DNA from: Pirellulaceae bacterium
GTDB taxonomy: Bacteria; Planctomycetota; Planctomycetia; Pirellulales; Pirellulaceae
Length of the DNA: 64,000 nt
Assembly (NCBI GenBank): GCA_041685355.1
Contig: JAWLFY010000005.1
Coordinates: 5,269 to 69,268, forward strand
Reading direction: 5' to 3'
This document shows positions 1,181 to 26,424 of this stretch, one piece after another. Made by a program: the position numbers and the translations under genes. A model generated the notes under the pieces. The model was given only the letters and a program-made list of their open reading frames with translations, had not been told where the DNA came from and made no database searches. Within the stretch, counting starts at the first letter, position 1; every line of letters begins with the position of its first letter.

Positions 1181-1250
1181 CGTCAAACGGCCCCCGTCAA
1201 ACGGCCCCCGCCAAACGGCCCTCCGAAAGCGGCCTTCCGAAAGCGGCCCT
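1181..1250. repeat. Degenerate tandem repeat, about 5 copies of 14 bp (cgtcaaacggcccc / ccgaaagcggccyt)
   Basis: Read directly. It lies between the uspA-like start and the stop of the 1078-aa gene. Confidence 0.8.
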
Positions 1251-7282: not shown

Positions 7283-7366
7283 CGGAGGACACGGGACTCG
7301 AACCCGCAACCGGTTACCCGGCAACTGATTTCGAATCAGTCTGCTAGCCAATTCGCATATCCTCCG
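7283..7366 (-). tRNA. tRNA-Ser (anticodon CGA), type II with long variable arm
   Basis: Folded by hand from the minus-strand sequence GGAGGATATGCGAATTGGCTAGCAGACTGATTCGAAATCAGTTGCCGGGTAACCGGTTGCGGGTTCGAGTCCCGTGTCCTCCG. Acceptor stem GGAGGAT/GTCCTCC. Anticodon stem ACTGA/TCAGT with loop TTCGAAA (U33, CGA, A37). Variable arm CCGG-GTAA-CCGG. T-arm GCGGG-TTCGAGT-CCCGT. CCA is not encoded. The ends are uncertain by 1-2 nt. Confidence 0.85.
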
Positions 7367-7402
7367 GCTGTTTTTCTATCCTGTCCCGAACGCCGCGATT
7401 CG

Positions 7403-7828: not shown

Positions 7829-8136
7829 TGTCGATGCTCCGTTTCGAACCCGTACTCCTTGAGCCATTTTTCCCACTTGCTCGCCTCGGCGTGCGTCTTC
7901 AGCGACAGCTCCCGCCACTTGGGACAGCGGTACTTCACGTCGTGGTGCCCGTTGTGGGCGTGCTGTTTCACCTCGCAACCGAGCTTCTCGAGCGTTCCCG
8001 CGATCGTCTCCGCTTTCTTCTCGTCGTGGATGTGCTTCGCCTTCCAGTCTTTGCAGTGGTAGCGGACGATTTCCGCCGCCGACGCGGTCGTGGCGAAACC
8101 GAACAGCAGGGTGGCGAGGGCAAGCAATCGGATCAT
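7825..8136 (-). CDS. Small secreted His/Lys-rich protein (103 aa)
   Basis: ATG at 8136. Clear signal peptide (MIRLLALATLLFGFATTASA|AE). The mature part is rich in H, K, E and C (HCKDWKAKHIHDEKK...HAHNGHH...EHRH). Its codon usage is less GC-biased than the shadow frames. Confidence 0.6.
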   Translation of the reverse strand: MIRLLALATLLFGFATTASAAEIVRYHCKDWKAKHIHDEKKAETIAGTLEKLGCEVKQHAHNGHHDVKYRCPKWRELSLKTHAEASKWEKWLKEYGFETEHRH

Positions 8137-8258
8137 GGCGGCGTCGGTCCCTTGGTCAAAGAGGGCGTGGGATGTCGAAGTCGTGAAGTCACGGCAAGGC
8201 GAGCGGCTCGACAGCCGCCGCCTCGCGTGTTCCCGGATACGAGACGGCGGTGGGCCGA

Positions 8259-8371
8259 GTCAAGGTGACTCCCAAGACGTCACGTCAAGGTGACTCCCAA
8301 GACGTCACGTCAAGGTGACTCCCAAGACGTCACGTCAAGGTGACTCCCAAGACGTCACGTCAAGGTGACTC
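8259..8371. repeat. Tandem repeat, 4.5 copies of 25 bp (gtcaaggtgactcccaagacgtcac)
   Basis: Four perfect 25-bp units (8259-8358) and one partial unit (8359-8371). The partial unit contains the stop codon and last codons of the Gfo/Idh/MocA gene. Each unit contains the inverted pair GTGAC...GTCAC. Confidence 0.95.
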
Positions 8372-9400
8372 GATCGGCACCGGTTTGCCCGCCCGCACCG
8401 ATTCCTCGGCCGCCAAACAGATCGCGACCGACCATCGTCCGTCTTCGGCGGTGCAGTGGAGCGGGGTCCCGTTTCGGTGGGCGTCGACGACCCGGGCGAT
8501 TTGGTCCTCCAGCTCGAACAGTTCGCCCGTCGGCTTTTCGATCGCGACGTCGTGGACCGTTTCTCCGTCGAACGCCCGCAACCGGAACGTCGGGTGCCGC
8601 GTGCGGTCCATCGCCCCGCTCCAAGACGCCCACAGCGCGCCTCGGGTCCCGGTGATCTTGACGGTTTGGTGGTGCTCGAACGCCGCGAGCGTTTGCGAGA
8701 CGACGGCGTACGCCCCCCCGTGGAAGTGCATGATCGCGCTGAAGTTGTCCTGCAGTTCGGGGTGGTCGGGCTGCCGCGAGTTCCCCGTCGCATAGATCTG
8801 CGTCGGATCGCCGGACGCGGAGAGGTACCAGCGTGCCAAGTCGAAGAAATGGATCGGCTCCTCCAGGATCCAGCTGCCGACGCGGGACAGGTCGTACCGC
8901 CATCCGTCGGAGCCGAGCCGGTACGGGTTTCGCGACAGTTCGACCAACGCGTAGAGGGGCGTCCCGATGAACCCTTCATCGATCATTTGTTTCGCCTTGC
9001 CCCACATCGACGAGAGGCGGAGTTCGTGACCGACGGCGAACAGGCGGGCATTCTCGCGGGCGACCTTGATCATGTCGTCACACTCTTCGACCGTGATCCC
9101 CATCGGTTTCTCGAGCAACAGGTGCTTCCCCGCCTTCAACACCGCCGTCGCGACTTCGTGGTGCAGGTGGCTGGGGACGACGACGTCGACGACCTCGATG
9201 TCGTCCCGGCGGAGCAATTCGTGGTAGTCGGTCACCACGTTCGCGTCGGGGTAGGCCTCGGTGGCGCGGGCCGCGGAAGCTTCGCTGTGGGTCGCGATCG
9301 CGGCGAGCCGGGCCCCCAACGTCTTCGTGATCGCGTCGGCGTGATGCTGGCCCCAGGCTCCGAATCCGATCAGCCCAAAGGGTACCGGTTGGTCGTTCAT
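8360..9400 (-). CDS. Gfo/Idh/MocA family oxidoreductase
   Basis: 346 aa. N-terminal Rossmann 'FGLIGFGAWGQHHA', 'VVVPSHLHHEVATAVLKAGKHLLLEKP' (EKP motif), and a C-terminal alpha/beta domain. Confidence 0.9.
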   Translation of the reverse strand: MNDQPVPFGLIGFGAWGQHHADAITKTLGARLAAIATHSEASAARATEAYPDANVVTDYHELLRRDDIEVVDVVVPSHLHHEVATAVLKAGKHLLLEKPMGITVEECDDMIKVARENARLFAVGHELRLSSMWGKAKQMIDEGFIGTPLYALVELSRNPYRLGSDGWRYDLSRVGSWILEEPIHFFDLARWYLSASGDPTQIYATGNSRQPDHPELQDNFSAIMHFHGGAYAVVSQTLAAFEHHQTVKITGTRGALWASWSGAMDRTRHPTFRLRAFDGETVHDVAIEKPTGELFELEDQIARVVDAHRNGTPLHCTAEDGRWSVAICLAAEESVRAGKPVPIESP

Positions 9401-9548
9401 CCGTCGTTGTCTCCTCGTGGTCTATGAAGTTCGGCCACCAGTTTAGCCGGGAACCCCCGTGCGCATCGCCCCCGTCGGAAGGTCCGCCGTGCGGTACACT
9501 GGCGACGAGCGTTCCGATCCGAAACATGCGAGACAGCAAGGTGATTCG

Positions 9549-10319
9549 ATGAAGGTGTTGATGATGCGACGATGGCTTTTGATCGCGGTCACGGTCGGGT
9601 GTTGCGTCGGGGGCGTGGCGTCGCCGCCGGCACGCGCTCAAGGGGAGCTTGAGGACGGGTTTCGCCCGCTGTTCAACGGAAAGGACCTGCAAGGCTGGGT
9701 CGTGCCGGAAGGGGACGGCGGGCACTGGAAGGTGGTCGACGGGGTGATCGACTACGACGCCGGGTCCGAAGCGTCGGGGGACAAGAACCTCCGCACCGAG
9801 GATTCGTTCGGCGACTTCATCCTCAAGATGGATTGGCGGATCAAAGAGACGAGCGGGCTGTACGACATGCCGATCGTGTTGAGCGACGGCAGTTATCTGC
9901 AAGACGCGGAGGGAAACAAGGTCACGTTCAAGATCCCGAACGCCGATTCGGGCGTCTACCTGCGGGGCCACCCCCGGGCCCAGCTCAACATTTGGTGTTG
10001 GTCGACCGGATCGGGCGAGCTTTACGGGTACCGAAACAACCCGAACACCCCGGCGAAGCTTCGCGCGGCGGTCACGCCGCGAATCAACGCGGACAACCCG
10101 GTCGGCGAGTGGAATCGGTTCGTCGTGGTCCTCGTCGACGACCGTCTGACGGTGCTTCTAAACGACCATTTGATCATCGAGAACGCGGAACTGCCCGATC
10201 TGCCAGAGCGGGGCCCGATCGTGCTCCAGCACCACGGCGGGCCCCGTGGCGACGGGACGATGAGTCCCGCGTCGAGTCTGGTTCAGTTCAAAAACTTGTG
10301 GATCAAACCGCTCGATTGA
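9549..10319 (+). CDS. DUF1080 (3-keto-disaccharide hydrolase-like) domain protein, secreted
   Basis: Internal ATG at 9549 followed by a signal peptide (MKVLMMRRWLLIAVTVGCCVGGVASPPARA). 'FRPLFNGKDLQGWVV...GHWKVVDGVI' and C-terminal 'IVLQHHG...VQFKNLWIKPL' are typical of DUF1080. Confidence 0.85.
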   Translation: MKVLMMRRWLLIAVTVGCCVGGVASPPARAQGELEDGFRPLFNGKDLQGWVVPEGDGGHWKVVDGVIDYDAGSEASGDKNLRTEDSFGDFILKMDWRIKETSGLYDMPIVLSDGSYLQDAEGNKVTFKIPNADSGVYLRGHPRAQLNIWCWSTGSGELYGYRNNPNTPAKLRAAVTPRINADNPVGEWNRFVVVLVDDRLTVLLNDHLIIENAELPDLPERGPIVLQHHGGPRGDGTMSPASSLVQFKNLWIKPLD

Positions 10320-11094
10320 CCTTCGCCAAAACGGCGTTCATCAAGGGTGGGGCGAGCCGGTCGGCGTAGACGAGGCCTTTCCCGGCGAGGCTCAGGATCA
10401 CTTCGGCGCGGCGCGCGGCGATCGCGGCCAAGGTCGCCCGCGCGACCCGCCGCGGGTGCCAGCTTCCGAAGCTCCGCGACTCGGAGTCGGGGTTCGTCTC
10501 GACCAACGTCTGGAAGAACTCGCTGCGGGTCGTGCTGGGGCTTACCAACGTCACCTGGATCCCGTCCGGTTTCAATTCGGCGCGGAGCGAGTCGCTCCAG
10601 CCGTGCATCGCGAATTTGCTCGCGGAGTACTCGCTCTTGTCGGGGACGGCGCGGTGTCCGAGCACGCTTCCGATGTTGCAGATCACCGCCGAGCGTCCCT
10701 GCCGAAGGAGCGGGATGCAGAGCCGGGTCAGTTCGGCCGGGGCGAAAAAATTGACCTCCATCACCCGCCGCAAACGTGACTCGCTGGCGTCGGCGAACGG
10801 CCCGATCGCGCCGATCCCGGCGTTGTTCAGCAACAGATCGAGTTCGCCGTCGCGGATCGAGCGGGCGGCGACGACGATCCGCTCGCGAGTCTCCGGGTCC
10901 GTGACGTCGCCGGCGACCGGGATCACGGTTCCCGGCCCGGGCAAATCACGCAGGTCATCCAGCCGCGCGGCACGACGGGCGTTGGCGACGACGTGCGCCC
11001 CACGCTCGACCAACAACTCGCACAGCGCCCGCCCGATCCCGCTACTGGCCCCCGTCACGATCACGGCGGCGTCACAAGGCTTCCAACGAGCCAT
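10303..11094 (-). CDS. SDR family oxidoreductase
   Basis: 263 aa. 'VTGASSGIGRA' (TGxxxGxG), 'NNAG', and 'YSASKFA' (Y-x-x-x-K). Its 3' end overlaps the convergent DUF1080 gene by 17 bp. Confidence 0.9.
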   Translation of the reverse strand: MARWKPCDAAVIVTGASSGIGRALCELLVERGAHVVANARRAARLDDLRDLPGPGTVIPVAGDVTDPETRERIVVAARSIRDGELDLLLNNAGIGAIGPFADASESRLRRVMEVNFFAPAELTRLCIPLLRQGRSAVICNIGSVLGHRAVPDKSEYSASKFAMHGWSDSLRAELKPDGIQVTLVSPSTTRSEFFQTLVETNPDSESRSFGSWHPRRVARATLAAIAARRAEVILSLAGKGLVYADRLAPPLMNAVLAKVNRAV

Positions 11095-14102: not shown

Positions 14103-14305
14103 CCGTTCCTTTGGCTTCCTCTCATTTGATGTCCGCAAAGGGGGCAGACCCTCTCCCCGCGATCCTCCAAGCGTCTGCCCCCCTTTTAGTATCCGCGGAT
14201 CGCAAAAAACTTCGCCCCCTCTTGCGGGGATGACTTGCCTCTACTGTACGAATAGGCACAATGTTCGGTCTCGGTTCATGCTCGTCACATGAGAGGGGGC
14301 AGATC

Positions 14306-16012
14306 ATGACGAAGGAAGTGTCGGAACGGTCACGTTCTCGAGCGGCGATCGCCCGCGAACTCGAGCTCGAATTAACGAAGCTCCGCAACGAGGCCTCGGC
14401 GGCACGGCTCGAGGCGAAGGCGGCCGAGCTGGAGTTGGTTCTACAAAGGTATCGCGATTCGTTCGACGAGGCCGATCCCGAGACGGGAAATCGGGGCGGA
14501 GTCGATTCGTCACCTTTGGCAACGACCATCGCCGAGCGGTCGGCCGCCGGCCCTGCTTTCACCGATCGTGCCGAGTCGCTCACCGACCGATTCCGGGGAT
14601 GGGACGAGGTCCGTAGCCGGCTTCGGATCACCGAACCCGACACGTCCCGCAGCTTGCCTGCCCGATCCGACGGGACCGACGCCGACCGGCCAGCCCCTGA
14701 CGGGCCAGCCCCTGACGGGCCAGCCCCTGACGGGCCAGCCCCTGCACGGCCGGCCCCTGCACGGCCGGCCCCCGCATGGCATGCTTCTAAACGGCAAGCT
14801 CCTGAAGGGCCAGTCCCCTCACGGCCAGAGCCCTCACGTCAACGGAACCCGGCGTCGCACGGCTCCCTTCGGCCGAAGCGAACGAAGGACGGGGTCGAAT
14901 CCCGGCAACCGATCGAACTTGCAACCGATGCTGGTCTCACTTGGGGCACGAAGCCCGCGATCCTGGATCGACCCGGCGTCGCCAAGTCCAAACCGGGACG
15001 CCGCAACCCGGGGCCGGCCTCTCGCGACTCGGGCTCCGATGCCCGCGATCTGAAACACGCCGCCCTCCGCTTCGAACCGACTCCCCCCGACGACGGTTCG
15101 ACGACCAAGCGGCGTCGTCCGGCGGCTTGGGGTGTCAGTTTCGTTGTCCACGTCGGTCTCCTGTTCGTCCTCGGCTTCTGGACGCTCGCGACGCAGCCGC
15201 CGCGGGACCAGGTTGCACTCGCCGCGACGACTTCCGATCCCACCGCCGACCCGATGGAGACGTTTGTCGTGGAGGCCACCGAGCCGGAAGCCGAGGAACC
15301 GGAGGAACCGTTGGCGGAACCCGAGATCGAGACGAGTCCGGTGGGGGAGATCCCTGTCGCCGACTTTGCCCTCGATCTGAGCCCCGCGCTGCCGACGCCA
15401 GAAAGTTTCGCGGCAGTCACCGGGACGACGTCCGCGTTGGCGTCGGTGAGCGCGGACGCGGACGCCTCCGAAACGATGGAGTTCTGCGGGGTCGAAGGGG
15501 GCGGCAACCACTTCGTCTACTTGGTCGACAGTTCCGGAAGCATGGGAGCGGCGTTCGAATCGGCGCGGGCGGAGTTGCTCCGTTCGATCGCCCTGCTGAA
15601 GCCCGAGCAACGCTTCTATGTCGTTTTCTTTGACGAGAACCCCGACTACATGCGGCTCGAAGATCCGAGCCGGGACGAACCCGCCAGCGTGTCGGCGACG
15701 CCCGAGAACAAACGGCGGCTCGCGCGGTGGGCAGCCGGGATCAGGAAAGACCGCGGCCGTGCCCCGTACGAGCCGCTGCGGTTCGCGTTGGAGCTTCGAC
15801 CCGACGTGATCTTTCTTCTCTCCGACGGCGAATTTCCCCAACGGATCGAGGACCAACTGCGGGACGAGAACCGATATGAAAATCTGTTCGGCGATTCCGG
15901 TCCGATCAGCATCGTGCACACGATCGGGTATCACAGCCGTGAAGGGGAGCTCCGGATGCGGCGGATCGCCGAACAGAACGGCGGCCGGTACCGGCACGTC
16001 CCGAAGCGGTGA
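14306..16012 (+). CDS. Membrane-anchored von Willebrand factor A (vWA) domain protein
   Basis: ATG at 14306 preceded by GAGAGGGGG. N-terminal coiled-coil, then a PAPDG/PAPAR repeat (15-bp tandem units ~14690-14770). One TM helix (WGVSFVVHVGLLFVLGFWTLA). C-terminal vWA domain with a MIDAS-like 'LVDSSGSM'. Confidence 0.75.
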   Translation: MTKEVSERSRSRAAIARELELELTKLRNEASAARLEAKAAELELVLQRYRDSFDEADPETGNRGGVDSSPLATTIAERSAAGPAFTDRAESLTDRFRGWDEVRSRLRITEPDTSRSLPARSDGTDADRPAPDGPAPDGPAPDGPAPARPAPARPAPAWHASKRQAPEGPVPSRPEPSRQRNPASHGSLRPKRTKDGVESRQPIELATDAGLTWGTKPAILDRPGVAKSKPGRRNPGPASRDSGSDARDLKHAALRFEPTPPDDGSTTKRRRPAAWGVSFVVHVGLLFVLGFWTLATQPPRDQVALAATTSDPTADPMETFVVEATEPEAEEPEEPLAEPEIETSPVGEIPVADFALDLSPALPTPESFAAVTGTTSALASVSADADASETMEFCGVEGGGNHFVYLVDSSGSMGAAFESARAELLRSIALLKPEQRFYVVFFDENPDYMRLEDPSRDEPASVSATPENKRRLARWAAGIRKDRGRAPYEPLRFALELRPDVIFLLSDGEFPQRIEDQLRDENRYENLFGDSGPISIVHTIGYHSREGELRMRRIAEQNGGRYRHVPKR

Positions 16013-16018
16013 CGCGAC

Positions 16019-17791
16019 CTAGAAGGAGCTCAGCGACCAGACGACCGTGACCACGGTCGCGGCGGCAACCGCGAAGTAGATCGCGATCGCGGCGCGTCGT
16101 TGCCACCGGTCGCGACGACGACGCTCCGGCGACCATTGCACCTCGTTCTGCAAATCCAGGATGAACGGGATGCACCCTTCGGCGAAGGCTTGACCCGAGG
16201 CCGCGGAGGCGCCGGTGGCGGCGATGAAACAGCCGCGGAGTCGGACCCGACCCTCGGCCGCCGCGACGGCGCGGCGGAGCATCCGTGACATCCCCTCTCG
16301 GCGCCCTCGCATCACGTCCACCAAACGGTGGATTCGACGGTTTTCCTGACTCATCAATCGGTCATCCGCGGGCGCGGCGACGTCGCGACGCATCAACCGG
16401 TACCCGAGAGGCGGAAAGAGTTCGTCACAAATCCAACGCACCGCGCGATCGATCCCCTCGGCCTCGGCGTCCGGTTCGCTAGGAGGCGCCGCGGGCAGGC
16501 AGGCGCCAAGCCGCCGGTGCCGCTGCGTCTCGGGGAAGCGGTCGAGAAACGCGTGGCTCCCTCGGCATTGATCCAGGTCGCAAAAGATCCACTGCGCCGA
16601 CACCGACGTTTCGGTCGCCGCCGCGACCGTTTGCAAATCGCGTTCGACCCGCATCCCGACGTGATCGGCCAGTTCGGTGTCGTCGGCCGCGTCGAGCGGG
16701 ACCATCACGAGCACACCGTTGACCGGACAGAACGGGCGTCGTCGCTCCGCCAGTTCACGGCACACCGCGTCGAGCCGCTCGAGACACTGTTCGGCCTCGA
16801 CCGGATCGAGACGCAACAGTGACGACGCGGCCTTGGTGGGCTGGAGGACCGTTTCCGAATCCGTCGACCGTTCGTCGGTCAACGTTTCGAGGTCCGTCAT
16901 CGTTCGGTTCAACCTTTCCACGGTCGCGTGATCGGCGGTCGCGTGATCGACGGTCGGTGAGACGCCGCCGGTCGAATTCGGACTTGGGTCGATCGCCACG
17001 GCGGTCCCGCCAACGCCCGATCCGGCCGGCCCTCCCGCCGCGCCCGATCCGGCCGGCCCTCCCGCCGCGCCCGATCCGGCCAACGCTCGCGTTTGGGACG
17101 AGGCGGCGGTTCCTGCCGCGCGATCGGTCCAAAGGTGGGCGGGGCTGCGGGAAATCCGACTCCGTCCGGCCAGCTCCACCTGGCGACGTTCGACCCGCGC
17201 CCGCGCCGCCTGGCGAGTGAACGTTCCCGACAAGCTGACGTCGCGACAGCAGACGTAGATCGCTTCGCGGTTTCCGCAGACCTGAACCGCCTCGTCGGAC
17301 TCCTCCGGCTGTGGCAACACCGCCAACTCGACGTGGGCGGCGGCAAAGAATTCGCGAATCCCGCCCGCCGGGCTACCGAGAACCAGATAGAGCGGGGTTC
17401 GCGAGACGTCGATTCCGGCCCGCGCGAATCGGTCAAGGCCGGTCCGGACGGCCGCCGTCGACGAGTCGAACAGCGGACGCTCGTCCGGCCGACGGAGGGT
17501 CCGCGCGAAGAACCATGCCGACCAGGCGGTCGCGTCGATTAATACGCCAAGGATCGGCAGCCACAGGGCGCGGAGTAGCGGCAGCGATGAACGGACGAAC
17601 GCGTCGAGCCGGAACACGATTTGGGCGGTCACCAGCAATCCCAGAACGACCCCCATCGCGGTCACATGGATCGCAATGACCAGCGACCGCTGCCACGTCC
17701 GATCGGCCCGACGCCACGCGACGGTCGGCGCGAACGAGGCGAGGGCGATCATCCCCAAGATGTGCAACGATTTGGCGAGGAGTGCGATCAT
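16019..17791 (-). CDS. tssM: TssM/IcmF-like protein, N-terminal (membrane + cytoplasmic) module only
   Basis: 590 aa with ATG at 17791, 66 bp downstream of tssL. N-terminal hydrophobic helices. 'TPLYLVLGSPAGGIREFF' sits at the position of the TssM P-loop 'PWYLvlGppGsGKTt'. 'PVNGVLVMVPLD' and 'AQWIFCDLDQCRG..AFLDRF' resemble the following TssM blocks (the PiNGv and TKcDll.GF blocks recalled from memory). It ends with one TM helix (AIAIYFAVAAATVVTVVWSL) followed directly by the stop. Similarity was judged by eye only. Confidence 0.6.
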   Translation of the reverse strand: MIALLAKSLHILGMIALASFAPTVAWRRADRTWQRSLVIAIHVTAMGVVLGLLVTAQIVFRLDAFVRSSLPLLRALWLPILGVLIDATAWSAWFFARTLRRPDERPLFDSSTAAVRTGLDRFARAGIDVSRTPLYLVLGSPAGGIREFFAAAHVELAVLPQPEESDEAVQVCGNREAIYVCCRDVSLSGTFTRQAARARVERRQVELAGRSRISRSPAHLWTDRAAGTAASSQTRALAGSGAAGGPAGSGAAGGPAGSGVGGTAVAIDPSPNSTGGVSPTVDHATADHATVERLNRTMTDLETLTDERSTDSETVLQPTKAASSLLRLDPVEAEQCLERLDAVCRELAERRRPFCPVNGVLVMVPLDAADDTELADHVGMRVERDLQTVAAATETSVSAQWIFCDLDQCRGSHAFLDRFPETQRHRRLGACLPAAPPSEPDAEAEGIDRAVRWICDELFPPLGYRLMRRDVAAPADDRLMSQENRRIHRLVDVMRGRREGMSRMLRRAVAAAEGRVRLRGCFIAATGASAASGQAFAEGCIPFILDLQNEVQWSPERRRRDRWQRRAAIAIYFAVAAATVVTVVWSLSSF

Positions 17792-17857
17792 GACTGGCGG
17801 ACTGGCGGTTCGGGGTGGGAGCTGATGCGGGATATCGCGAGAAACGCGGGCGACTCG

Positions 17858-18487
17858 TCACCGGGCCCAAGTCGTGACCGCGAGGTACGACAAGACCGGA
17901 AGCAGAACGACCGCCGATACCCACGCCACATGACTGGAACGTTCAAGCGACGCCGCACCGAGTAACGGAGGGACGTCGGTCGCCGGGGACAGGTCGTGGC
18001 TGAACGGCAATTTCAACTCCGGGACCCAGCCGAGCGTGACGCGGGTGCGATGGATCCAAGCCGATAGCTTCTCCGGCTCCGTGCGGTATTGGCCGGTGAA
18101 GCCGAGCTGGACGCACAAGTAGAAGACCGCGAGGTCCTCGTGGCGGCCGATCGTCTCCGCGAGCGACGCTTGACGCCAAAACATCCACGCCCGGTCGTTC
18201 GTGCCGAACAACTCCCCCTCCAGCTTGTTCTCGTTCCACGCGGCACCGAGCGACTCGTCGTCGGTCATGATCTCGTCGATCCAGCAAACCAACGGGTAGA
18301 CCAAGCCGAGGTAATCGCCGGTGGCCATTCCCGCGGCGAGCTGCGCGTTGTGGATCCGCGTCAACAACTCTTTCAGCTCGGACCGCGGGACCGAAAGGTC
18401 CTTCGACTCCGTGCCCGAATGGTTCGTCAGGATTAGCCAGGTTTGCTCGAAAATCGGGTCGACGAGTTCGGCGGTTTCGGGACGCAT
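17858..18487 (-). CDS. tssL: Type VI secretion protein TssL (DotU family), no peptidoglycan-binding extension
   Basis: Internal ATG at 18487 (MRPETAEL...). DotU hallmark 'AVFYLCVQLGFTGQYR'. A single C-terminal TM helix (VAWVSAVVLLPVLSYLAVTTW) and then the stop. Confidence 0.8.
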   Translation of the reverse strand: MRPETAELVDPIFEQTWLILTNHSGTESKDLSVPRSELKELLTRIHNAQLAAGMATGDYLGLVYPLVCWIDEIMTDDESLGAAWNENKLEGELFGTNDRAWMFWRQASLAETIGRHEDLAVFYLCVQLGFTGQYRTEPEKLSAWIHRTRVTLGWVPELKLPFSHDLSPATDVPPLLGAASLERSSHVAWVSAVVLLPVLSYLAVTTWAR

Positions 18488-18662
18488 GATGCCAGATTCG
18501 AGACGCGAGTGGGTGGGAATGACGGCGGGCCGGTTCGCGGATGGCACGCCGAGGCGGGATCGCGTTGAAACGTAGGTCACCGCCCGGGCCGACGAAGCCC
18601 CGCCACGGGGCGAATTCTCGACGCGTGCGACGGACGACCGATCGCTCCGCGACCTTCTCGAT

Positions 18663-18764
18663 ATCCATCGGTGACGCGAGAGATCCATCGGTGACGCGAG
18701 AGATCCACGGCTGACGCGAGAGCATCGGCTGATGACCCGAGAGCATCAGCTGATGAAGCGAGGG
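18663..18764. repeat. Degenerate tandem repeat, about 5 copies of 20-21 bp (atccatcggtgacgcgagag ...)
   Basis: Two perfect 20-bp copies (18663-18702) followed by three progressively diverged copies. It lies in the divergent tssL / tssA intergenic region. Confidence 0.8.
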
Positions 18765-18836
18765 CATCGACCCGAAACGCAAAAAGTCGGGAGGGAGCCG
18801 TTCACCCCACTTTGACGTGACCTAACGTTTTTCGTC

Positions 18837-20087
18837 ATGACCGCTCGGCCTCTCGCCGGGTCACGTCGCCCGCCTTCGCACGAGTCCCGTCTGATGTCCC
18901 CGCCCCGACCGAGACCTCAACCGGATCCCGCGTCCGAAAACCCCTTGGCTTTCGACATCGAGAATCTGCTGCGGCCGATCTCCGACGCGGAACCCGGTGG
19001 CGACCCGCTCGCCTACAGCCACTGGCTTCGCTCCCAACTGTCGCAGCTCCGCAACCCGGCCCGCTCGGCCAACCCCGACGACCCGGTCCGCGACGTCGAT
19101 GAGCTGATCGATTGGGGCGAGATCTTTGACACGTCTTCGCGAGCGCTCGGTGAAACGACGAAAGACCTGCGTGTCGTTTGCCACTTGACCGAGGCGGCGA
19201 TGCACCGCTTCGGTTTGGCGGGACTCCGCACGGGGATCGTCCTGCTGCGGCGGTTGTGCGAAGAGAACTGGGATTCGCTCGCCCCCGCGGTCGACCCGGA
19301 CGACCCCGAAGTCCGCTGCGCCCCGCTAGAGAACCTGCTCGACGACCCGAATCACGGTCCCCGTCTTCCGACCGCTCTCCGGGCGCTGCCGATCCTGCCG
19401 ACTGACCCGCAACCGGTCAGCTTGATCACGGCGTTGGCGACCAAAGACGAAAAGGCCGCGTCCGATCTGTCCGCGTCGATCGATCGGATTCCCGTCGAGA
19501 CCGCGAACACGCTCTCGTCAGAACTGAACGAGACGTCCGGCGAACTGGACGCGTTGCAGCACGTGTTGCTCGAACGGATGGGAGACTACGCCCCGACGTT
19601 CCTGCACCTCCGTGAATCGCTCGACCTGCTGCGGCAATGGCTCGATAAAGTCTTGGAACCGCAATTGCGTTCGGGCCCGGTCGCCGCCGAAAGCGACTCG
19701 CCGGTGCCCCCCCCCGACGTTCCCGCGACCGCCGACGATTCCGATGACGGGGCCTCGGCCGGCGGGGTGATCCGACGCGACCGGGCGATCGGTCGCCGCG
19801 ACCCGGCCGGCGGCGATCCCGGCGAAGCGCCCGAACGCGTGCTCGATCGAACCGACGTGCTGCGGGCCGACGCGTACCGCCAGCTGACCCGCGCGGCGGA
19901 CGTGTTGCGTCGGATCGAGCCGCACAGCCCGATCCCGTACATGGTTCAACGCGCGGTGCGTCTCGGCCAACTGCCGTTGCCGGAACTGATGGCCGTGATC
20001 GTGCGCGACGAATCGACGCTTGCGACCTACAGCCGCGAGCTAGGGTTGTCCGGCTTCGGGCCGGAGTCATCCGACGATGAGCCCTGA
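18837..20087 (+). CDS. tssA: Type VI secretion protein TssA (ImpA N-terminal domain family)
   Basis: The ImpA_N signature 'LLRPISDAEPGGDPLAYSHWL' and the C-terminal 'IEPHSPIPYMVQRAVRLGQLPLPELM' are both typical of TssA/ImpA proteins. An alternative ATG lies at 18894. Confidence 0.85.
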   Translation: MTARPLAGSRRPPSHESRLMSPPRPRPQPDPASENPLAFDIENLLRPISDAEPGGDPLAYSHWLRSQLSQLRNPARSANPDDPVRDVDELIDWGEIFDTSSRALGETTKDLRVVCHLTEAAMHRFGLAGLRTGIVLLRRLCEENWDSLAPAVDPDDPEVRCAPLENLLDDPNHGPRLPTALRALPILPTDPQPVSLITALATKDEKAASDLSASIDRIPVETANTLSSELNETSGELDALQHVLLERMGDYAPTFLHLRESLDLLRQWLDKVLEPQLRSGPVAAESDSPVPPPDVPATADDSDDGASAGGVIRRDRAIGRRDPAGGDPGEAPERVLDRTDVLRADAYRQLTRAADVLRRIEPHSPIPYMVQRAVRLGQLPLPELMAVIVRDESTLATYSRELGLSGFGPESSDDEP

Positions 20088-20164
20088 ACACCGTTCTCGT
20101 ACCGTCCGGACGCTCCGGTCGGTTGTGGTTCCCTTTTTACGTTTCCGATTTCAAGGAGCATCCC

Positions 20165-20695
20165 ATGGGTGACAGTTTGCAACACACGTTGGACCGAGTC
20201 CGACGTCCCCGAGTTCAGGTGACCTACGACGTCGAGACCGGCGGCGCCTTGGAGCGAAAAGAGCTCCCGCTCGTCGTCGGCGTGATGGCGGACCTGTCGG
20301 GCCAACCGGCCGAACCGAACGCGCCGCTCAAGCAGCGAAAGTTCGTCCCGGTCGACCGCGACAACTTGAACGACGTGCTCGCCAGCAGCAAGGCCCGCGT
20401 CGCGGCCCGCGTCCCGAACCGGCTGGCCGACGACAACACCGAGCTCCCGGTCGAACTGAAGTTCCAGTCGCTCGAAGACTTCGAACCGGAACAGGTCGCC
20501 CGCCAGGTCCCCGCCCTCCGCGAACTGCTCGAGATGCGGACCCAACTGTCGAACCTGCTCGGCAAGCTGGAAGGCAACGACAAGCTCGAACAACTGCTCG
20601 GCGAAGTGCTCGAGAACGGCGAAACCGCCCAGTCATTGGCCGGCGATCTCGGCGTCGAAGACGAGAAGAAAGACTCGGAAGAAAAGTCCAAGTGA
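20165..20695 (+). CDS. tssB: Type VI secretion sheath small subunit TssB (VipA)
   Basis: ATG at 20165 with AAGGAG upstream. 'RPRVQVTYDVETGGALERKELPLVVGVMADLSG' matches the TssB N-terminal core. Confidence 0.92.
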   Translation: MGDSLQHTLDRVRRPRVQVTYDVETGGALERKELPLVVGVMADLSGQPAEPNAPLKQRKFVPVDRDNLNDVLASSKARVAARVPNRLADDNTELPVELKFQSLEDFEPEQVARQVPALRELLEMRTQLSNLLGKLEGNDKLEQLLGEVLENGETAQSLAGDLGVEDEKKDSEEKSK

Positions 20696-20760
20696 CCTTT
20701 CGGACGCTCTGACGCACCCCCCTTTCCTTCGTACTTACCCGAATCCCACGGAACCGAATC

Positions 20761-22233
20761 ATGGCACAAGCCCAAACCGAAGCGGCCGGCGGCGCCGCAG
20801 TCGCCGAACTGTCACTGATCGATCAGATCCTCGACCAAACCCGCGCCCTCGACGACAACGAGCGGGAGCGGAACCAGACCTACATCGAGCAATTCGTCCG
20901 CAAGGTGCTCGACGGCCAAACGACGATCAGCAAAGACGTCGTCACCACGATCACCAACTGGATCGCCGACATCGACCACAAGTTGTCGGTGCAGTTGAGC
21001 GAGGTGATGCACTGCGACGAGTTCCAGAAGCTCGAAGGGACATGGCGCGGCCTGCACTACCTGACCCAGAACAGCGAGACGGGGACGAGCCTCAAGATCC
21101 GCGTGCTGAACGTCAAGAAGGCCGAATTGCAGAAAGACCTGGAGAAGGCCGTCGAGTTTGACCAGAGCACGCTGTTCCGCAAGTGCTACGAAGAGGAGTA
21201 CGGACAACTCGGTGGCGAACCCTACGGGATGCTCGTCGGCGATTACCACTTCAGCCGCACCGCTGACGACGTCAACTTGGTGCGGTTGATCAGCAACGTC
21301 GCCGCCGCCGCGCACGCCCCGTTCGTCGCCGGCGCCGACCCGAACCTGTTCAACATGGACACGTTCACCGAGCTCAGCGGGCCGCGGGACCTGGCGAAGA
21401 TCTTCCAGGGTGTCGAGTACGCCGGGTGGCGGAGCTTCCGCGAGAGCGAGGACAGCCGCTACGTCGCGTTGACCCTGCCGAACGTGCTGGGACGGCTCCC
21501 CTACGGCCAAGAGTTCAAGAAGATCGAAGCGTTCGACTTCGAAGAACAGGTCGACGGCAGCAAACACCAGCAGTACTTGTGGATGAACGCGTCGTGGGCC
21601 TATGCGGCTCGCGTCACCGACGCGTTCTCTAAGCACGGTTGGTTCGCCCAGACCCGCGGGGTCGAAGGGGGCGGCAAGGTCGAAGGGTTGCCCGTGCACA
21701 CCTTCCCGACCGACGACGGCGACGTCGCGATGAAGTGCCCGACCGAAATCGCGATCACCGACCGTCGCGAGTTCGAACTGTCGAACCTCGGCTTCCTGCC
21801 GCTGGTGCACTGCAAGAACACCGACTACGCCGCGTTCCTCGGGGCGCAGAGCTGCCAGAAGCCGAAGACGTACTTCGAAGACGACGCCAACGCCAACGCC
21901 GAGTTGTCCTCGAAGATCAACTACCTGATGTGCGTCAGCCGCTTCGCGCATTACCTGAAGGTGATGGCCCGCGACAAGATCGGGTCGACGATGGAACGCG
22001 GGGAGTGCCAGGAATGGCTCAACGATTGGATCAGCAACTACGTCTGCGACCCGGTCACCGCCGGTGACGAGACGAAGGCCGAACGGCCGCTGAGCGAAGC
22101 CCGCGTCGAAGTCGCCGAGATCGCCGGACGCCCCGGTTGGTACGAGGCGATCGCGTACCTGCGTCCGCATTTCCAGATGGAAACGTTGGGCGCCTCGATG
22201 CGACTCGTCGCCGAAGTCCCGCAACAGGGTTAA
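20761..22233 (+). CDS. tssC: Type VI secretion sheath large subunit TssC (VipB)
   Basis: 490 aa. 'FQKLEGTWRGLHYL', 'LKIRVLNVKKAEL', 'YGMLVGDYHF', 'AAAAHAPFVAG', 'YVALTLPNVLGRLPYG', consistent with the VipB family throughout. Confidence 0.95.
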   Translation: MAQAQTEAAGGAAVAELSLIDQILDQTRALDDNERERNQTYIEQFVRKVLDGQTTISKDVVTTITNWIADIDHKLSVQLSEVMHCDEFQKLEGTWRGLHYLTQNSETGTSLKIRVLNVKKAELQKDLEKAVEFDQSTLFRKCYEEEYGQLGGEPYGMLVGDYHFSRTADDVNLVRLISNVAAAAHAPFVAGADPNLFNMDTFTELSGPRDLAKIFQGVEYAGWRSFRESEDSRYVALTLPNVLGRLPYGQEFKKIEAFDFEEQVDGSKHQQYLWMNASWAYAARVTDAFSKHGWFAQTRGVEGGGKVEGLPVHTFPTDDGDVAMKCPTEIAITDRREFELSNLGFLPLVHCKNTDYAAFLGAQSCQKPKTYFEDDANANAELSSKINYLMCVSRFAHYLKVMARDKIGSTMERGECQEWLNDWISNYVCDPVTAGDETKAERPLSEARVEVAEIAGRPGWYEAIAYLRPHFQMETLGASMRLVAEVPQQG

Positions 22234-22250
22234 ACGCCCGCGGGATGAAA

Positions 22251-22277
22251 CGCGAACCGGCGCGTCGCCGGTTCGCG
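22251..22277 (+). promoter_or_regulatory. Perfect 12-bp stem-loop between tssC and hcp (no U-tract)
   Basis: CGCGAACCGGCG-cgt-CGCCGGTTCGCG read directly, 18 nt after the tssC stop. It is followed by gcgattcc, with no T-run. Confidence 0.5.
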
Positions 22278-22341
22278 GCGATTCCAGACTGACAAGTTCA
22301 AAACCGACCTAACGAACGAATTCACGAAGCGAGGACCTACC

Positions 22342-22848
22342 ATGGCAGTCGACTATTTCCTGAAGATTGATGGCATTAGCGGCGAATCCGAGGACGACAA
22401 GCACAAGGACGAGATCGAGATCGTCGATTTCGAATGGGGCGAAGAACAAACCTCCAACTTCGCCCAAGGCGGCGGCGGCGGTGGCGGCAAGGTCAAGATG
22501 GCCAACTTCAAGTTCCGCACGTTCCTCAACAGCGCCTCCCCGGCCCTGATGCAGTCGTGTGCCGAAGGGAAGCACATCAAGGACGCCGTGTTCACCTGCC
22601 GCAAGGCGGGCGGCGGCCAGAAGGATTACTACAAGGTCACGATGGAAGACCTGATCGTCGCGTCGTGCCACATCAGTGGCGGGAACGGCAACGTCGAAGA
22701 GGGCGGCTACGTCGACGGGCACCCGATCGAAGAGATCACGCTCAACTTCGGCAAGATCAAGTGGGAATACCACCCGCAGAAGAACGACGGCTCGCTCAAC
22801 TCGGCGAAGACCGGCGGCTACGACCTGAAGAAGAACACGCGGGTCTGA
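22342..22848 (+). CDS. hcp: Type VI secretion tube protein Hcp (TssD)
   Basis: 168 aa. 'MAVDYFLKIDGISGESEDDKHKDEIEIVDFEWG' is a classic Hcp N-terminus, and the length is typical. Confidence 0.93.
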   Translation: MAVDYFLKIDGISGESEDDKHKDEIEIVDFEWGEEQTSNFAQGGGGGGGKVKMANFKFRTFLNSASPALMQSCAEGKHIKDAVFTCRKAGGGQKDYYKVTMEDLIVASCHISGGNGNVEEGGYVDGHPIEEITLNFGKIKWEYHPQKNDGSLNSAKTGGYDLKKNTRV

Positions 22849-22886
22849 TCGTCGTCGCTTGACGTCATCGAGCGGATCGAACCGAC

Positions 22887-22923
22887 GACCCGCGGGCGCA
22901 CTTAGGTCCGCGGGTCGTTTTTC
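22887..22923 (+). terminator. Rho-independent-type terminator after hcp
   Basis: GACCCGCGG-(12-nt loop)-CCGCGGGTC followed by GTTTTTC, 39 nt after the hcp stop. Confidence 0.6.
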
Positions 22924-22970
22924 ATCCGCACGGCCCCACCCGACGGCCCTCTCTGACCGGAACCGCAGCG

Positions 22971-23450
22971 ATGCCTATCTCCCGTGAAACGCAACTCTTG
23001 CCTAGCGTCTTCGACCGGCTCGCCGATCTGAGCGGTGACGGCATCAACAGCGACGAGTGGTACGACATCGACCGGCTGACCCAGGCGGTCCGCCGCGACT
23101 TGGAGGACCTGCTCAACACGCAAAGGACCGTTCCCGGTCTCGCGTCGTCGTTCCCGATGCTGGCCGAGTCGGTCGTCGGGTTCGGCGTCCCGGACCCGTC
23201 GACGTTCTCGCTGGAGACGCCGGCCGGGCGACGCCAATTCGCCGCGGCGCTGGTCCACACGATCCACACGTTCGAGCCGCGGCTCCGCGACGTCCGCATC
23301 GAACTGGGGGGCGACAGCGGGGAAAAGCTCCGCGACCTCCGCTTCCGCGTCGTCGCGCGACTGGCCGCCGAGCCGGCACCTCAGATCATCTTCGAATCCA
23401 AGCTCCATGTCCCGAGCGGACAGTTCAGCGTGGGGGAAGCGTCCCAATGA
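22971..23450 (+). CDS. tssE: Type VI secretion baseplate protein TssE (gp25-like)
   Basis: 159 aa. 'LLPSVFDRLAD', 'DLEDLLNTQR', 'FGVPD'. The stop overlaps the tssF start (ATGA). Confidence 0.88.
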   Translation: MPISRETQLLPSVFDRLADLSGDGINSDEWYDIDRLTQAVRRDLEDLLNTQRTVPGLASSFPMLAESVVGFGVPDPSTFSLETPAGRRQFAAALVHTIHTFEPRLRDVRIELGGDSGEKLRDLRFRVVARLAAEPAPQIIFESKLHVPSGQFSVGEASQ

Positions 23451-25279
23451 CCCAAACACTGTTTCAGTACTACGAACGCGAACTGCAGTACCAACGCGAG
23501 CAGGCGTGCGACTTCGCGGCGCGTTATCCGGCGGCCGCCGGGCGGTTGCGGATGGACGCCACCGGTGTCAGCGACCCGCACGTCGAACGGATCATCCAAT
23601 CCGTGTCGCTGCTCGCCGCCCGCGTTCATAAGCGACTCGACGACGACTTGCCCGAAGTCACCGACGCGTTGTTGTCGATCCTGTATCCGCACTACTTGCG
23701 TCCGATCCCGTCGATGGCGATCGTCGAACTGGCGGCCGATCCGGCGAACTTGCCGCCCGAAGGCTTGACCGTTCCCCGCGAGACGCCGCTGCGGACTTCC
23801 CCCGTCGGCGACCACGCGTGTCGCTATCGGACGACCCAGGAAACCGAGTTGTGGCCGATCGAGATCACCGACGTCGCGTTGCTGCAACCTCCCTTCGGGG
23901 ACTGCCCGGCGGTTCCCGCCGAGACCGGGTCGGCGCTCCGGATTCGGATCCGACACCTGCAAGGAAAGCCGCTTCGAGGCGTCCCGGTCGACCACCTCCG
24001 GTTTCACCTGACCGGCCCCGAAACGGTCGTGGCCGGGTTGTACGAGGGTCTGCTCAACGACGCGACCGAAGTCGTGTTTCGGGCCGCCGGGGTGGAACCG
24101 CGACGCCGTTCCGCCGAGTCGACGCTGACCGCCAGCGGGTTCGCCCGTGAGCAAGCGATGCTCCCCTCCCCCGAAGCCTCGTTCGAGGGCTACCGCTTGC
24201 TCACCGAACTGTTCTCCTTCCCCGACAAGTTCGCCTTTGTGGATCTCGGGGGATGGGACGAGATCCGCGACGACTTGTACTCGCCCGAGGTCGAGATCTG
24301 GGTGTTTCTCCGTTCGTCCCAGGACGAAATCGTCGGCGACGTTCGCAAGGACCACATCCGTCTCGGCTGCACGCCCGTGGTGAACCTGTACCCGAAAATT
24401 TGCGAGCCGATCCAATTCACCCGCCACCGGCCGGAGTACCGGGTCGTCCCCGACGCGTCGCGGCGGTTGGGGTGCGAGGTGTACTCGGTCGACGGACTCG
24501 ACAGCGCCCGTTCCGCGGGTGAGCGCGGTTGGCAACCGTTTTTCGATATCAGCCGCCGACACGCCGCCGACACCGCGGTCGGGTATTGGCACGCGGCCCG
24601 CCGCGAGAGTCAGGCGCCGGGGGACCACGGGACCGAGATCTATCTGCAACTGGTCGACGAACATTTCGACCCGTGTTATCCGGGGACCGAAGTCGTCGCG
24701 GTACGGGCGACGTGCACCGACCGTGACGTCCCGAATCTGCTTCGCCAACACGGCGACGCGGTGACGTGGCACGTCGACGCGCCGATTCCCGTCAAATCGG
24801 TCCGCTGCCTGAAACACCCCACGCCACCGCTGCGGCCCCCGGTGCGACGTCACGCCCATTGGAACCTGATCAGCCACCTGGCGCTGGGGCATCGGTTCCT
24901 CGAAGGGCCAGACGGACTCGACGCGCTCCGCGAGATCCTTCACCTGTACGATTTCTCCGACCCGAACTCGTACGACCCTCGCGGGGCGACCGCGCGACAG
25001 ATGATCGACGGGATCGTCGAGATGCGTCATCGGTCGGTCACCCGCCAAGTCGGGCCGCCGGAAGACGGGTGCTTCGCCCGCGGCTCGCAATTGACGTTCG
25101 TGCTCAGCGAGGACAACTACGAATCGGTCGGGGTGTTCCTGTTCGCCTCGGTGCTGCGACGATTCCTGGGGTTGGCGAGCGGGATCAACTCGTTCGTCGA
25201 AACGGTGATCGAGTCGAAGCAGCGTGACGGGGTCGTCGCGCACTTCCCGCCGCACGTCGGGGAGGAGCCGTCGCTGTGA
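23447..25279 (+). CDS. tssF: Type VI secretion baseplate protein TssF
   Basis: ATG at 23447 inside ORF 23057..25279. 'LFQYYERELQYQREQACDFAARYPAAAGRL' is the canonical TssF N-terminus. 610 aa. Confidence 0.92.
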   Translation: MTQTLFQYYERELQYQREQACDFAARYPAAAGRLRMDATGVSDPHVERIIQSVSLLAARVHKRLDDDLPEVTDALLSILYPHYLRPIPSMAIVELAADPANLPPEGLTVPRETPLRTSPVGDHACRYRTTQETELWPIEITDVALLQPPFGDCPAVPAETGSALRIRIRHLQGKPLRGVPVDHLRFHLTGPETVVAGLYEGLLNDATEVVFRAAGVEPRRRSAESTLTASGFAREQAMLPSPEASFEGYRLLTELFSFPDKFAFVDLGGWDEIRDDLYSPEVEIWVFLRSSQDEIVGDVRKDHIRLGCTPVVNLYPKICEPIQFTRHRPEYRVVPDASRRLGCEVYSVDGLDSARSAGERGWQPFFDISRRHAADTAVGYWHAARRESQAPGDHGTEIYLQLVDEHFDPCYPGTEVVAVRATCTDRDVPNLLRQHGDAVTWHVDAPIPVKSVRCLKHPTPPLRPPVRRHAHWNLISHLALGHRFLEGPDGLDALREILHLYDFSDPNSYDPRGATARQMIDGIVEMRHRSVTRQVGPPEDGCFARGSQLTFVLSEDNYESVGVFLFASVLRRFLGLASGINSFVETVIESKQRDGVVAHFPPHVGEEPSL

Positions 25280-26424
25280 CGATCGAATCCCCTGCCGCAT
25301 CCGCGAGCCTTTCGGCCAGCGTTTTCTCCGCGGCGACGCTCACCGACGCCGACCAGCTCCGGCTGCCCCGCGGCTCGGTCGCCCGCGAGTTGTTGGAAAC
25401 GCCCTGGAAGTTCGACTTCTTTCAATCCGTGCTGTTGTTGCAACAGGTCACCGCGTCGAACTCGGGCGCGCCGACAGCGCCGCTCGGTCGGTTTTCGCGT
25501 CCGAGCGACGAGGCGATGCGGTTCGCCGTCCCCGACAGCTTGGCGTTCCCCGGATCGACGATCCGTTCGATCGGATGGAACTTCGCCGAAGGACGCCCGA
25601 TCGTCCGCGTCAACTTCATGGGCCTCACCGGCCCCTCGGGGATGCTCCCCGACGCGTACACCGAACGGCTGCAGCGGATCGATCTGGGCTCGCGACACGA
25701 GAACCGGCATGCGCTCCGCGATTGGCTCGACAACTTCAATCACCGACTGATCTCGCTGTTCTTTGACGCGTGGGCGAAGTACCGCTTTCCGGTCGCGATC
25801 GAGCGTCAACGGATCGAATCGGAGCGGGGGCGGAAACGGGCGACGACGGTGCGGGTCGCGCTCTCCGCCGTCGCGGGACTCGACCCAGAGCACCGTGAGC
25901 AGGCGATCGATCGAGACGAGCTGTTGGGGCTCGCCGGAATGTTCGCCCAGCGGCCGATGACGGTCTGCAACCTGCAAGCGGCGCTGCGGCGGTCGCTCGG
26001 GGTACCGATCCGGATCCGACAATTCCAACCGGAGTGGCTGGTCGTCGAGCCCGATTCGCAAACGTCGCTCGGCATCGCCAACGGCATCCTCGGCCGCGAC
26101 GCGTTGGTCGGCGAGCGGATATGGAGCCGCGCGCAAAAGATCTTGATCGAGGTCGGGCCGTTATCGAGAGAGGACTTCCCGAGGTTTCTGCCGCCGACCG
26201 GTGAGAACCCTGGCGACGCGTACCGCAAACTCGCCGAACTGGTGCGGTTGGCGATCGGCCCCTCGACCGAGTTCGACATCCGACCGATGCTCAAGGTCGA
26301 AAGTCCCCTGGAGGTGCGTCTCTCTGCCGCCGACGAGGCGAACCGACTCGGCATCGACAGTTGGATGGGGACCCCCGAGAACGCCGAAACCGTCGGCGAC
26401 GCCGTCTTCGCCGGCGCCGCGTAG
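25276..26424 (+). CDS. tssG: Type VI secretion baseplate protein TssG
   Basis: GTG at 25276 overlaps the tssF stop (GTGA). 'PWKFDFFQSVLLLQQ' and 'RVNFMGLTGPSGMLP' are typical of TssG. Confidence 0.9.
   Translation: MTIESPAASASLSASVFSAATLTDADQLRLPRGSVARELLETPWKFDFFQSVLLLQQVTASNSGAPTAPLGRFSRPSDEAMRFAVPDSLAFPGSTIRSIGWNFAEGRPIVRVNFMGLTGPSGMLPDAYTERLQRIDLGSRHENRHALRDWLDNFNHRLISLFFDAWAKYRFPVAIERQRIESERGRKRATTVRVALSAVAGLDPEHREQAIDRDELLGLAGMFAQRPMTVCNLQAALRRSLGVPIRIRQFQPEWLVVEPDSQTSLGIANGILGRDALVGERIWSRAQKILIEVGPLSREDFPRFLPPTGENPGDAYRKLAELVRLAIGPSTEFDIRPMLKVESPLEVRLSAADEANRLGIDSWMGTPENAETVGDAVFAGAA

Follow-up and report, generated by a model that had tools for sequence, protein, structure and literature searches.

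The stretch of DNA analysed here, referred to as the window, comprises 64,000 nucleotides of contig JAWLFY010000005.1 from a Pirellulaceae bacterium (assembly GCA_041685355.1) and carries a block of type VI secretion system (T6SS) genes at 16019-26424. In this block, a short tssM and a tssL lie on the minus strand, with tssA, tssB, tssC, hcp, tssE, tssF and tssG arranged divergently, and the products of these divergent genes all score above curated cut-offs. The gene under study is the short tssM, which occupies 16019..17791(-) with its stop codon and sits after tssL, as a canonical tssM does. It is an intact open reading frame (ORF) of 590 codons, uninterrupted on translation, with a match to PF14331. 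The first-pass annotation had described a TssM-like protein of 590 aa that ends at one transmembrane helix and the stop codon, and translation, hydropathy and an AlphaFold2 model agree with that description. The three motifs that it quoted are all present in the translation: TPLYLVLGSPAGGIREFF occupies aa 132-149, PVNGVLVMVPLD aa 356-367 and WIFCDLDQCRG aa 401-411. Only 6 bp separate the TAG stop of the short tssM (16019-16021) from the TGA stop (16010-16012) that ends the convergent ORF 14261..16012(+), and there is therefore no space for a frameshifted continuation, as had been proposed. A scan for terminators and promoters around the short tssM gave nothing informative.

Hydropathy and the AlphaFold2 model place N-terminal helices at aa 2-28, 32-59 and 71-98. 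The first of them is less conserved, while the family consensus retains the other two, which make up a conserved membrane hairpin (aa 32-98; 17498..17698(-)) with basic residues flanking the cytoplasmic sides of its helices. The last helix spans aa 555-589, has its hydrophobic core at aa 566-590 (16022..16096(-); hydropathy 2.2, in agreement with the model) and is followed by zero residues. Directly N-terminal of it lies the segment QNEVQWS..RRRRDRWQRR. By the positive-inside rule, the hairpin and the last helix are placed like TM1-TM2 and TM3, respectively, of canonical TssM (topology from PMC6517824), a placement that is a prediction only. With this topology, the protein would expose to the periplasm the loop of the hairpin, of about 12 residues, and essentially no tail. 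The model has a mean predicted local distance difference test score (pLDDT) of 73, with folded parts above 85, and it shows an alpha/beta domain composed of aa 109-212 and aa 330-550, interrupted by a disordered insert at aa 213-323.

The relationship with TssM is carried by the core of the cytoplasmic domain. PF14331 (IcmF-related_N) matches aa 348-536 (16184..16750(-)) with 42.4 bits against a cut-off of 25, and this segment, which holds both PVNGVLVMVPLD and WIFCDLDQCRG, is also recovered with TIGR03348 and hhalign. When a profile of 37 diverse family members was aligned by hhalign with the 1404-aa TssM of Azospirillum sp. B510 (pAB510a; locus L018 3793-8007(-)), the conserved core was matched with 94.8% probability and an E-value of 5e-8; in this alignment PVDGVILTVPLE stands opposite PVNGVLVMVPLD, and the CDL..G motif likewise meets its counterpart block. 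Profile similarity to TssM, on which the naming of this gene depended, is thus present. The TIGR03348 TssM equivalog, by comparison, yields 20.6 bits against a cut-off of 388 and aligns to positions 194-364 of the 1168 in the model, and the Pfam IcmF_C and IcmF-related periplasmic families (PF06761, PF06744) have no match in the window protein. The short TssM fails two curated features that define the family, the periplasmic domain and the equivalog score. A search of PDB sequences with the family profile gave no relevant match, and public databases label the protein 'IcmF/TssM N-terminal domain-containing protein'. Judged by its homologies and position, the protein is best described as a homologue of the N-terminal half of TssM in the tssM genomic slot, a short-form TssM that defines a variant of T6SS-i, and in this identity and architecture we have high confidence.

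The segment TPLYLVLGSPAGGIREFF (17345..17398(-)) has been assigned as a degenerate P-loop because a strand, a glycine-rich loop and a helix are seen in the models, because its glycines keep the canonical numbering, and because of fold matches to GTPases. In the AlphaFold2 model, the strand (aa 134-139) and the helix (aa 145-151) surround a loop that at the Walker A position reads G139-SPAG-G144-I-R. G139 and G144 have the same residue numbers as in the Walker A motif of Agrobacterium tumefaciens TssM (G139, G144, K145, T146), with the lysine replaced by isoleucine and the threonine by arginine. The P-loop region is significantly aligned by no profile, and the pattern G....GK[ST] occurs in 0 of the 180 sequences fetched, about 175 of which are family members. 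The full-length Azospirillum TssM has no Walker A motif either, its sequence at this position being VPWYLRTGVVPGDDGG, and therefore the loss of the motif is not tied to truncation. For this reason, the degenerate P-loop of the first-pass annotation stands as a reasonable reading, with the glycines kept and the K/T lost, but it is less special than it had seemed.

Foldseek returned no significant match for the model of the window protein itself (best E 0.37), probably because the disordered linker of 130 residues splits the domain. A family member with a short linker gave a model of pLDDT 88.9 and predicted template modelling score 0.83, and almost all of its top 50 PDB matches are TRAFAC-type GTPases (best E 9.9e-3, probability 0.96), including G-alpha, Sar1/Arf, YsxC/EngB, Toc34, EngA, Rac and EF-Tu. 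The cytoplasmic domain is thus likely to have a GTPase-like fold, as far as the models indicate. Given the residues that occupy the Walker A position, we infer that nucleotide binding has been lost in the short TssM.

The linker that interrupts this domain (approximately aa 195-335; 16787..17209(-)) is of low complexity and variable length, aligns poorly and is modelled with pLDDT below 50. Tandem Repeats Finder detects in it a 27-bp repeat at 17005-17081 (2.8 copies, coding GSGAAGGPA) and a 15-bp repeat at 16920-16960. The record of a metagenome-assembled genome (MAG), GCA_041686655.1, matches the window and has a gap of 100 N inside the 27-bp repeat (L014 2747-2846), and its gene call at this position covers only the C-terminal 293 aa (P0176). 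In the window sequence this gap is closed, with two copies of the repeat. The repeat copy number in the linker is therefore uncertain. The continuity of the frame across the linker is supported by a gap-free orthologue of 597 aa with 86% identity.

The short form is not restricted to this genome. A word-indexed search retrieved 28 homologues with identities from 86% to 29%, all of them from Pirellulaceae, in the range of 455-605 aa or fragmentary, and with PF14331 alone; the full-length members among them have 565-605 aa, and they include proteins from Rosistilla oblonga, R. carotiformis, R. ulvae, Roseimaritima ulvae and Pirellulaceae MAGs. Conservation extends over the full length in 22 aligned homologues. 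When 1.84 billion cluster representatives (clusters at 50% identity) were searched exhaustively with HMMER, 1267 clusters were assigned to the family at E<=1e-3; with the limit set at 1e-10 or 1e-30, the number is 951 or 378, respectively. The best 150 of the 1267 clusters all have 305-636 aa, and in them the match extends to the profile's end, close to the C-terminus of each protein. Across the 180 sequences fetched, the last hydrophobic 19-mer is followed by a median of 4 residues and by no more than 28. Further named members come from Gemmataceae and Aureliella helgolandensis, and one MAG in the family was binned as Alphaproteobacteria, with a gene context that looks planctomycetal. When a diverse alignment was used to search a protein database once more, it gave back the same close set only and did not widen the taxonomy, and a scan of a genome collection with narrow peptide patterns found 7 loci.

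Relative to the closest orthologue (synonymous divergence dS 0.30), the ratio of nonsynonymous to synonymous divergence (dN/dS) reaches 0.30 in the linker, as against 0.07 in aa 1-200 and 0.03 in aa 336-590. The low values in the folded parts therefore indicate that the gene is under purifying selection. A full-length TssM, sought in orthologous loci, was found in none: the homologues found are all short, with their C-termini at the same helix. On the comparison of sequences, the short TssM is a lineage-wide form and not a strain-specific truncation. The relatives belong to Pirellulaceae and Gemmataceae, in accordance with the remark that this lineage has an atypical envelope.

The organization of the locus is conserved together with the gene. 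The block TssG-F-E-Hcp-C-B-A / DotU-short TssM is identical in Roseimaritima ulvae, the TARA MAG, the closest MAG, Aureliella and a further MAG (L023), while a module TssK-DotU-short TssM is found in a Gemmataceae MAG, a metagenome contig and strain Pan216; other arrangements occur too. When the ORFs of 14 loci were clustered all against all, only known T6SS families recurred, with DotU and the short TssM in 14 of 14, ClpV in 5 and TssK in 3. The gene for DotU adjoins the short tssM in the window and in all 14 clustered loci. The gene after the short tssM varies by lineage, and encodes ClpV, CotH, a protein with a VWA domain, giant proteins or a thioredoxin. It is clpV in five relatives (L001, L008, L009, L011, L012); in the window and in the closest MAG clpV is absent from this place and a VWA gene is found instead. 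Divergent genes upstream of tssK were compared as possible conserved counterparts of RB9676, and no similarity among them was found. A divergent TssK-DotU-short TssM module in L006 (ENA contig_140573, 6378-10563) has Arg/Pro-rich translations and TssM matches spread over three frames, which suggests that its gene calls were broken by frameshifts or assembly errors.

A short gene at this position can be traced in earlier data. The entry for the R. baltica SH1 locus in the supplement of Boyer et al. (2009) gives the order TssK-DotU-RB9685-TssA-B-C-Hcp-E-F-G-VgrG-x-PAAR, where RB9685 has 1734 bp and 577 aa and no COG assigned, and neither COG3523 (IcmF) nor COG3521 (TssJ) appears in that entry. 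The short gene was therefore already visible then and went unrecognised. The literature on short or truncated TssM and on T6SS in Planctomycetes, subscription-only papers aside, yielded only passing mentions of T6SS genes in R. baltica and in the phylum, and in it we found no paper that describes the short TssM form.

The periplasmic part that is missing from the short TssM was sought in the surroundings. Neither tssJ nor a split periplasmic gene was found beside the short tssM in about 20 loci of distant lineages, in a search of locus surroundings for a TssJ that is small and divergent. The claim that the locus has no recognisable tssJ holds for the 64-kb window and for the related loci, and no gene adjoining the short tssM in the approximately 20 loci encodes a split periplasmic fragment of TssM. 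The TssL of the window was likewise said to have no peptidoglycan-binding extension, and indeed a profile scan finds in it only DotU and no peptidoglycan-binding domain, the protein ending at its own membrane helix (aa 252-275 of the 276-aa ORF). The gene for this short, tail-anchored TssL/DotU lies at 17858..18487(-) (209 aa from M68 of the ORF, with the start taken from the public gene call; PF09850, 67.7 bits).

The canonical TssM of T6SS-i, as in enteroaggregative Escherichia coli Sci1 TssM and A. tumefaciens ImpL/TssM (TIGR03348, COG3523), shares with the short TssM the hairpin, the NTPase-like domain with its PF14331 core and the helix that follows, and its gene occupies the same position after tssK-tssL. 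The short TssM differs from it by having no periplasmic domain of approximately 750 aa, by lacking the Walker A K/T and the DxxG motif, and by a disordered linker of 100-140 aa that interrupts the cytoplasmic domain. Docking of the baseplate in canonical systems falls to TssL and the cytoplasmic domain of TssM, which contact TssK and TssG, while the periplasmic domain of TssM binds TssJ, forms a double ring and opens a transient pore in the outer membrane (PMC6517824, PMC10433429). Since the periplasmic domain of about 750 aa is absent from the short TssM, neither contact with TssJ nor a channel would be possible.

From these observations we propose that the gene encodes a functional, lineage-wide short TssM, and that docking of the baseplate, by TssL and the short TssM, involves the inner membrane alone. 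What is kept is the membrane hairpin, the putative GTPase-like cytoplasmic domain with the IcmF-related_N core, and the third membrane helix, which together with TssL would form a platform confined to the inner membrane. The cytoplasmic face of this platform would dock the TssK/TssFGE baseplate, by analogy with the canonical cytoplasmic domain, and the domain, having presumably lost nucleotide binding, may serve as a scaffold. When the sheath contracts, the Hcp/VgrG needle would cross the periplasm, the wall and the outer membrane without a TssM/TssJ channel, either by unaided punch-through, as is thought for T6SS-iv, or via an unrecognised partner. The periplasm of Pirellulales is enlarged (PMC7716846, PMC5394234), and a rigid bridge of fixed length would, in our own estimate, suit such an enlarged and irregular periplasm poorly. 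We give this reading as a whole a probability of roughly 0.7, which blends our high confidence in the identity and architecture of the protein with evenly balanced odds on the inner-membrane-only mechanism. The broader proposal, that Planctomycetia contain a large clade of otherwise canonical T6SS-i without a TssM/TssJ trans-envelope complex, having either an anchor in the inner membrane only or a new non-homologous module for which the giant protein pair described below is the candidate, is more tentative, at slightly short of even odds.

Several points weigh against the proposed reading. The homology with TssM is statistically significant for the PF14331 core only, the equivalog score being far under its cut-off, and the matches to GTPase folds all have E-values above 0.001. 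Given that tssK, vgrG and clpV lie outside the window, the completeness of the system in the source genome is unproven. A distantly encoded TssJ, an IcmF_C-like protein or a non-homologous periplasmic partner may exist, the searches having covered the loci around the short tssM. Finally, the span could be supplied by two giant membrane-anchored periplasmic proteins, which as a pair flank the T6SS genes of three distant genomes.

This last point leads to the alternative that survives best, in which the periplasmic function has been replaced and the short TssM works with a non-homologous spanning partner encoded elsewhere, the candidates being two giant proteins of the inner membrane, GiantA and GiantB, of about 1600-1770 aa. 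Both are predicted to have a short basic N-terminus in the cytoplasm, one membrane helix near residues 50-76 and approximately 1600 residues outside; GiantA contains a MIDAS-type VWA domain and a weak caspase-like region, and GiantB a C-terminal beta-sandwich similar to CarboxypepD_reg. This topology, the motifs and the general shape would suit a partner that spans the periplasm. In Pan216, the order TssK-DotU-short TssM-GiantA-GiantB is found on a single strand, with giants of 1693 aa and at least 1771 aa (L024 14049-21428); in Aureliella the pair is convergent with the short tssM (L022 11797-21766); and in the TARA MAG a GiantB homologue abuts tssG (L003 1-1014). The GiantA proteins are 30% identical over approximately 1700 aa, and the GiantB proteins are related with an E-value of 6e-28, those of L003 and L022 being 44% identical in the C-terminal 337 aa. 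However, only 3 of about 20 loci have the giants at 10 kb or less from T6SS genes, the window has neither of them, and in two metagenome contigs (L025, L026) the 10 kb around the pair contain no T6SS gene. The giants show no detectable similarity to the periplasmic domains of TssM, to TssJ or to any solved structure, and, given that large surface proteins with VWA or beta-sandwich domains are common in planctomycete genomes, the adjacency may be due to chance. Replacement of the periplasmic function is for these reasons considered unlikely, at about one chance in four by our reckoning.

The VWA protein encoded by the convergent gene of the window was considered as a relative of GiantA and rejected, the two sharing a generic MIDAS motif match only (hhalign 15%). 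The Pan216 locus (L024 2771-6009 and 7946-9373) contains, in addition, two tandem genes for TssC (VipB), and on the opposite strand to them a gene for a 475-aa protein that matches both VipA and VipB and may be a fused sheath protein.

A second alternative takes the protein to be a different membrane protein that shares only IcmF-related_N with TssM and has another role, for example in the regulation of assembly. The equivalog score, the fact that only about 180 residues align with a full-length TssM, and the empty PDB sequence search would all fit such a protein. The slot of tssM after tssK-tssL is nevertheless occupied by it in every arrangement, no locus contains another candidate for TssM, and the order of parts, from the hairpin through the P-loop-like strand and loop and the PF14331 core to the membrane helix, is that of the published cytoplasmic half of TssM, which makes this alternative very improbable. 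The reading as a decayed or truncated remnant, or as an assembly artefact, in a non-functional T6SS block would draw on the absence from the window of tssK, vgrG, PAAR and clpV (clpV following tssM in several relatives) and on the gap of the public assembly within the gene, where only a fragment is called, but it is the least probable of all and already largely refuted by the equal length and end point across hundreds of divergent clusters, by the low dN/dS of the folded parts, by the nine genes of the block being all intact with strong scores, and by the gap lying in a tandem repeat distant from the C-terminus, in a region where the gap-free orthologue keeps the frame.

Having preferred the reading as a functional short TssM at the inner membrane, it is useful to compare the system with others that depart from the canonical envelope complex. 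The T6SS-iii of Bacteroidota has TssN/O/P/Q/R in place of TssJLM (PMC10433429) and contains neither TssL nor TssM. The planctomycete systems resemble it in that the full canonical TssJLM is unused and a non-homologous envelope module may replace it, and differ from it in that TssL and TssM are kept. The TssJ-less systems of Acinetobacter and Serratia marcescens have a full-length TssM that still reaches across the periplasm. These systems, which lack TssJ or are independent of it (cited in the preprint 10.1101/2023.12.21.572528), likewise carry no tssJ at the locus. All T6SSs are assumed to have an outer-membrane anchor, with the exception of T6SS-iv (10.1101/2023.12.21.572528). The latter, found in Amoebophilus asiaticus, is also without an envelope-spanning component; it lacks TssJ, TssL, TssM and ClpV and is thought to punch without a membrane complex (PMC10433429). 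Where T6SS-iv has none of these proteins, the planctomycete system keeps TssL and half of TssM, has ClpV in relatives, and is built on a typical T6SS-i core.

A full-length comparison is given by the Azospirillum TssM. Azospirillum gave the best TssC matches among plasmid records, and a search for a canonical TssM in the plasmid T6SS regions of Ralstonia and Gemmatirosa found tssM to lie outside those regions, which left the atypical Azospirillum TssM only. It has in common with the short TssM the PF14331 core, the motifs and the lack of Walker A, and it continues after the membrane helix for about 1000 residues that match none of the Pfam IcmF periplasmic families and that the short TssM does not have.

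TssJ, TssL and TssM are regarded as the core of T6SS-i, fixing the machine to both membranes and providing the channel for the needle (PMC6517824, PMC10433429). If the proposal is true, the status of the TssJLM channel as core needs revision, whether the anchor is in the inner membrane only or the periplasmic part has been replaced. Hundreds of divergent, selected TssM proteins that end at the inner membrane, in loci without tssJ, amount to a natural experiment on whether a periplasmic channel is needed for firing, on the role of the cytoplasmic half of TssM alone, and on how an injector deals with the enlarged planctomycete periplasm. Cultures and complete genomes exist for several carriers, namely Rhodopirellula baltica, Roseimaritima ulvae, Rosistilla species, Aureliella helgolandensis and strain Pan216, which makes the question of the channel directly testable. 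The finding also accounts for such loci being scored as lacking TssM in screens based on COGs or equivalogs.

The remaining genes of the block follow tssL on the plus strand. TssA is encoded at 18837..20087(+) (PF06812; TIGR03363, 180.9 bits), with a start that may lie about 57 bp downstream, and is followed by the small sheath subunit TssB at 20123..20695(+) (PF05591, TIGR03358), the large sheath subunit TssC at 20761..22233(+) (TIGR03355, 691.6 bits), the tube protein Hcp at 22342..22848(+) (PF05638) and TssE at 22971..23450(+) (TIGR03357). For TssF, at 23447..25279(+), the start was taken from 610-aa orthologues in an ORF that is open from 23057 and matches PF05947 from aa 131 with 628 bits. 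TssG (25276..26424(+); PF06996) is the last in the block. In the 64-kb window, tssJ, tssK, clpV, vgrG and PAAR were undetected; given that tssK, vgrG and PAAR lie outside it, the system would be split over several loci in the source genome.

The convergent neighbour of the short tssM (14261..16012(+)) encodes a protein that passes the membrane once, with its helix at aa 287-312. Its N-terminal part forms a coiled coil, a proline-rich PAPDG repeat is also present, and at the C-terminus lies a MIDAS-type VWA domain, for which VWA_2 gives 23.9 bits, below the cut-off. Its 15-bp tandem repeats at 14669-14838 also contain a gap of 100 N in the public record. This gene is common only to the closest relative (L005) and is probably not part of the T6SS.

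The window has a G+C content of 65% and contains genes of planctomycete type, such as those for DUF7133/cytochrome c proteins, sulfatases, 3-keto-disaccharide hydrolases, an extracytoplasmic function (ECF) sigma factor with a kinase, and DUF1581/1583 proteins. A gene similar to PD-(D/E)XK family transposases (PF12784; 28062-29066(+)) is found 1.6 kb past the end of the T6SS block. An ORF of 1078 aa at 1250-4486(-) has no Pfam match, a 1348-aa FtsK/SpoIIIE-type ATPase with an N-terminal membrane region is encoded at 43398-47444(-), and a TPR/DUF1581/DUF1583 protein of 2661 aa at 55970-63955(-) reaches the edge of the window.

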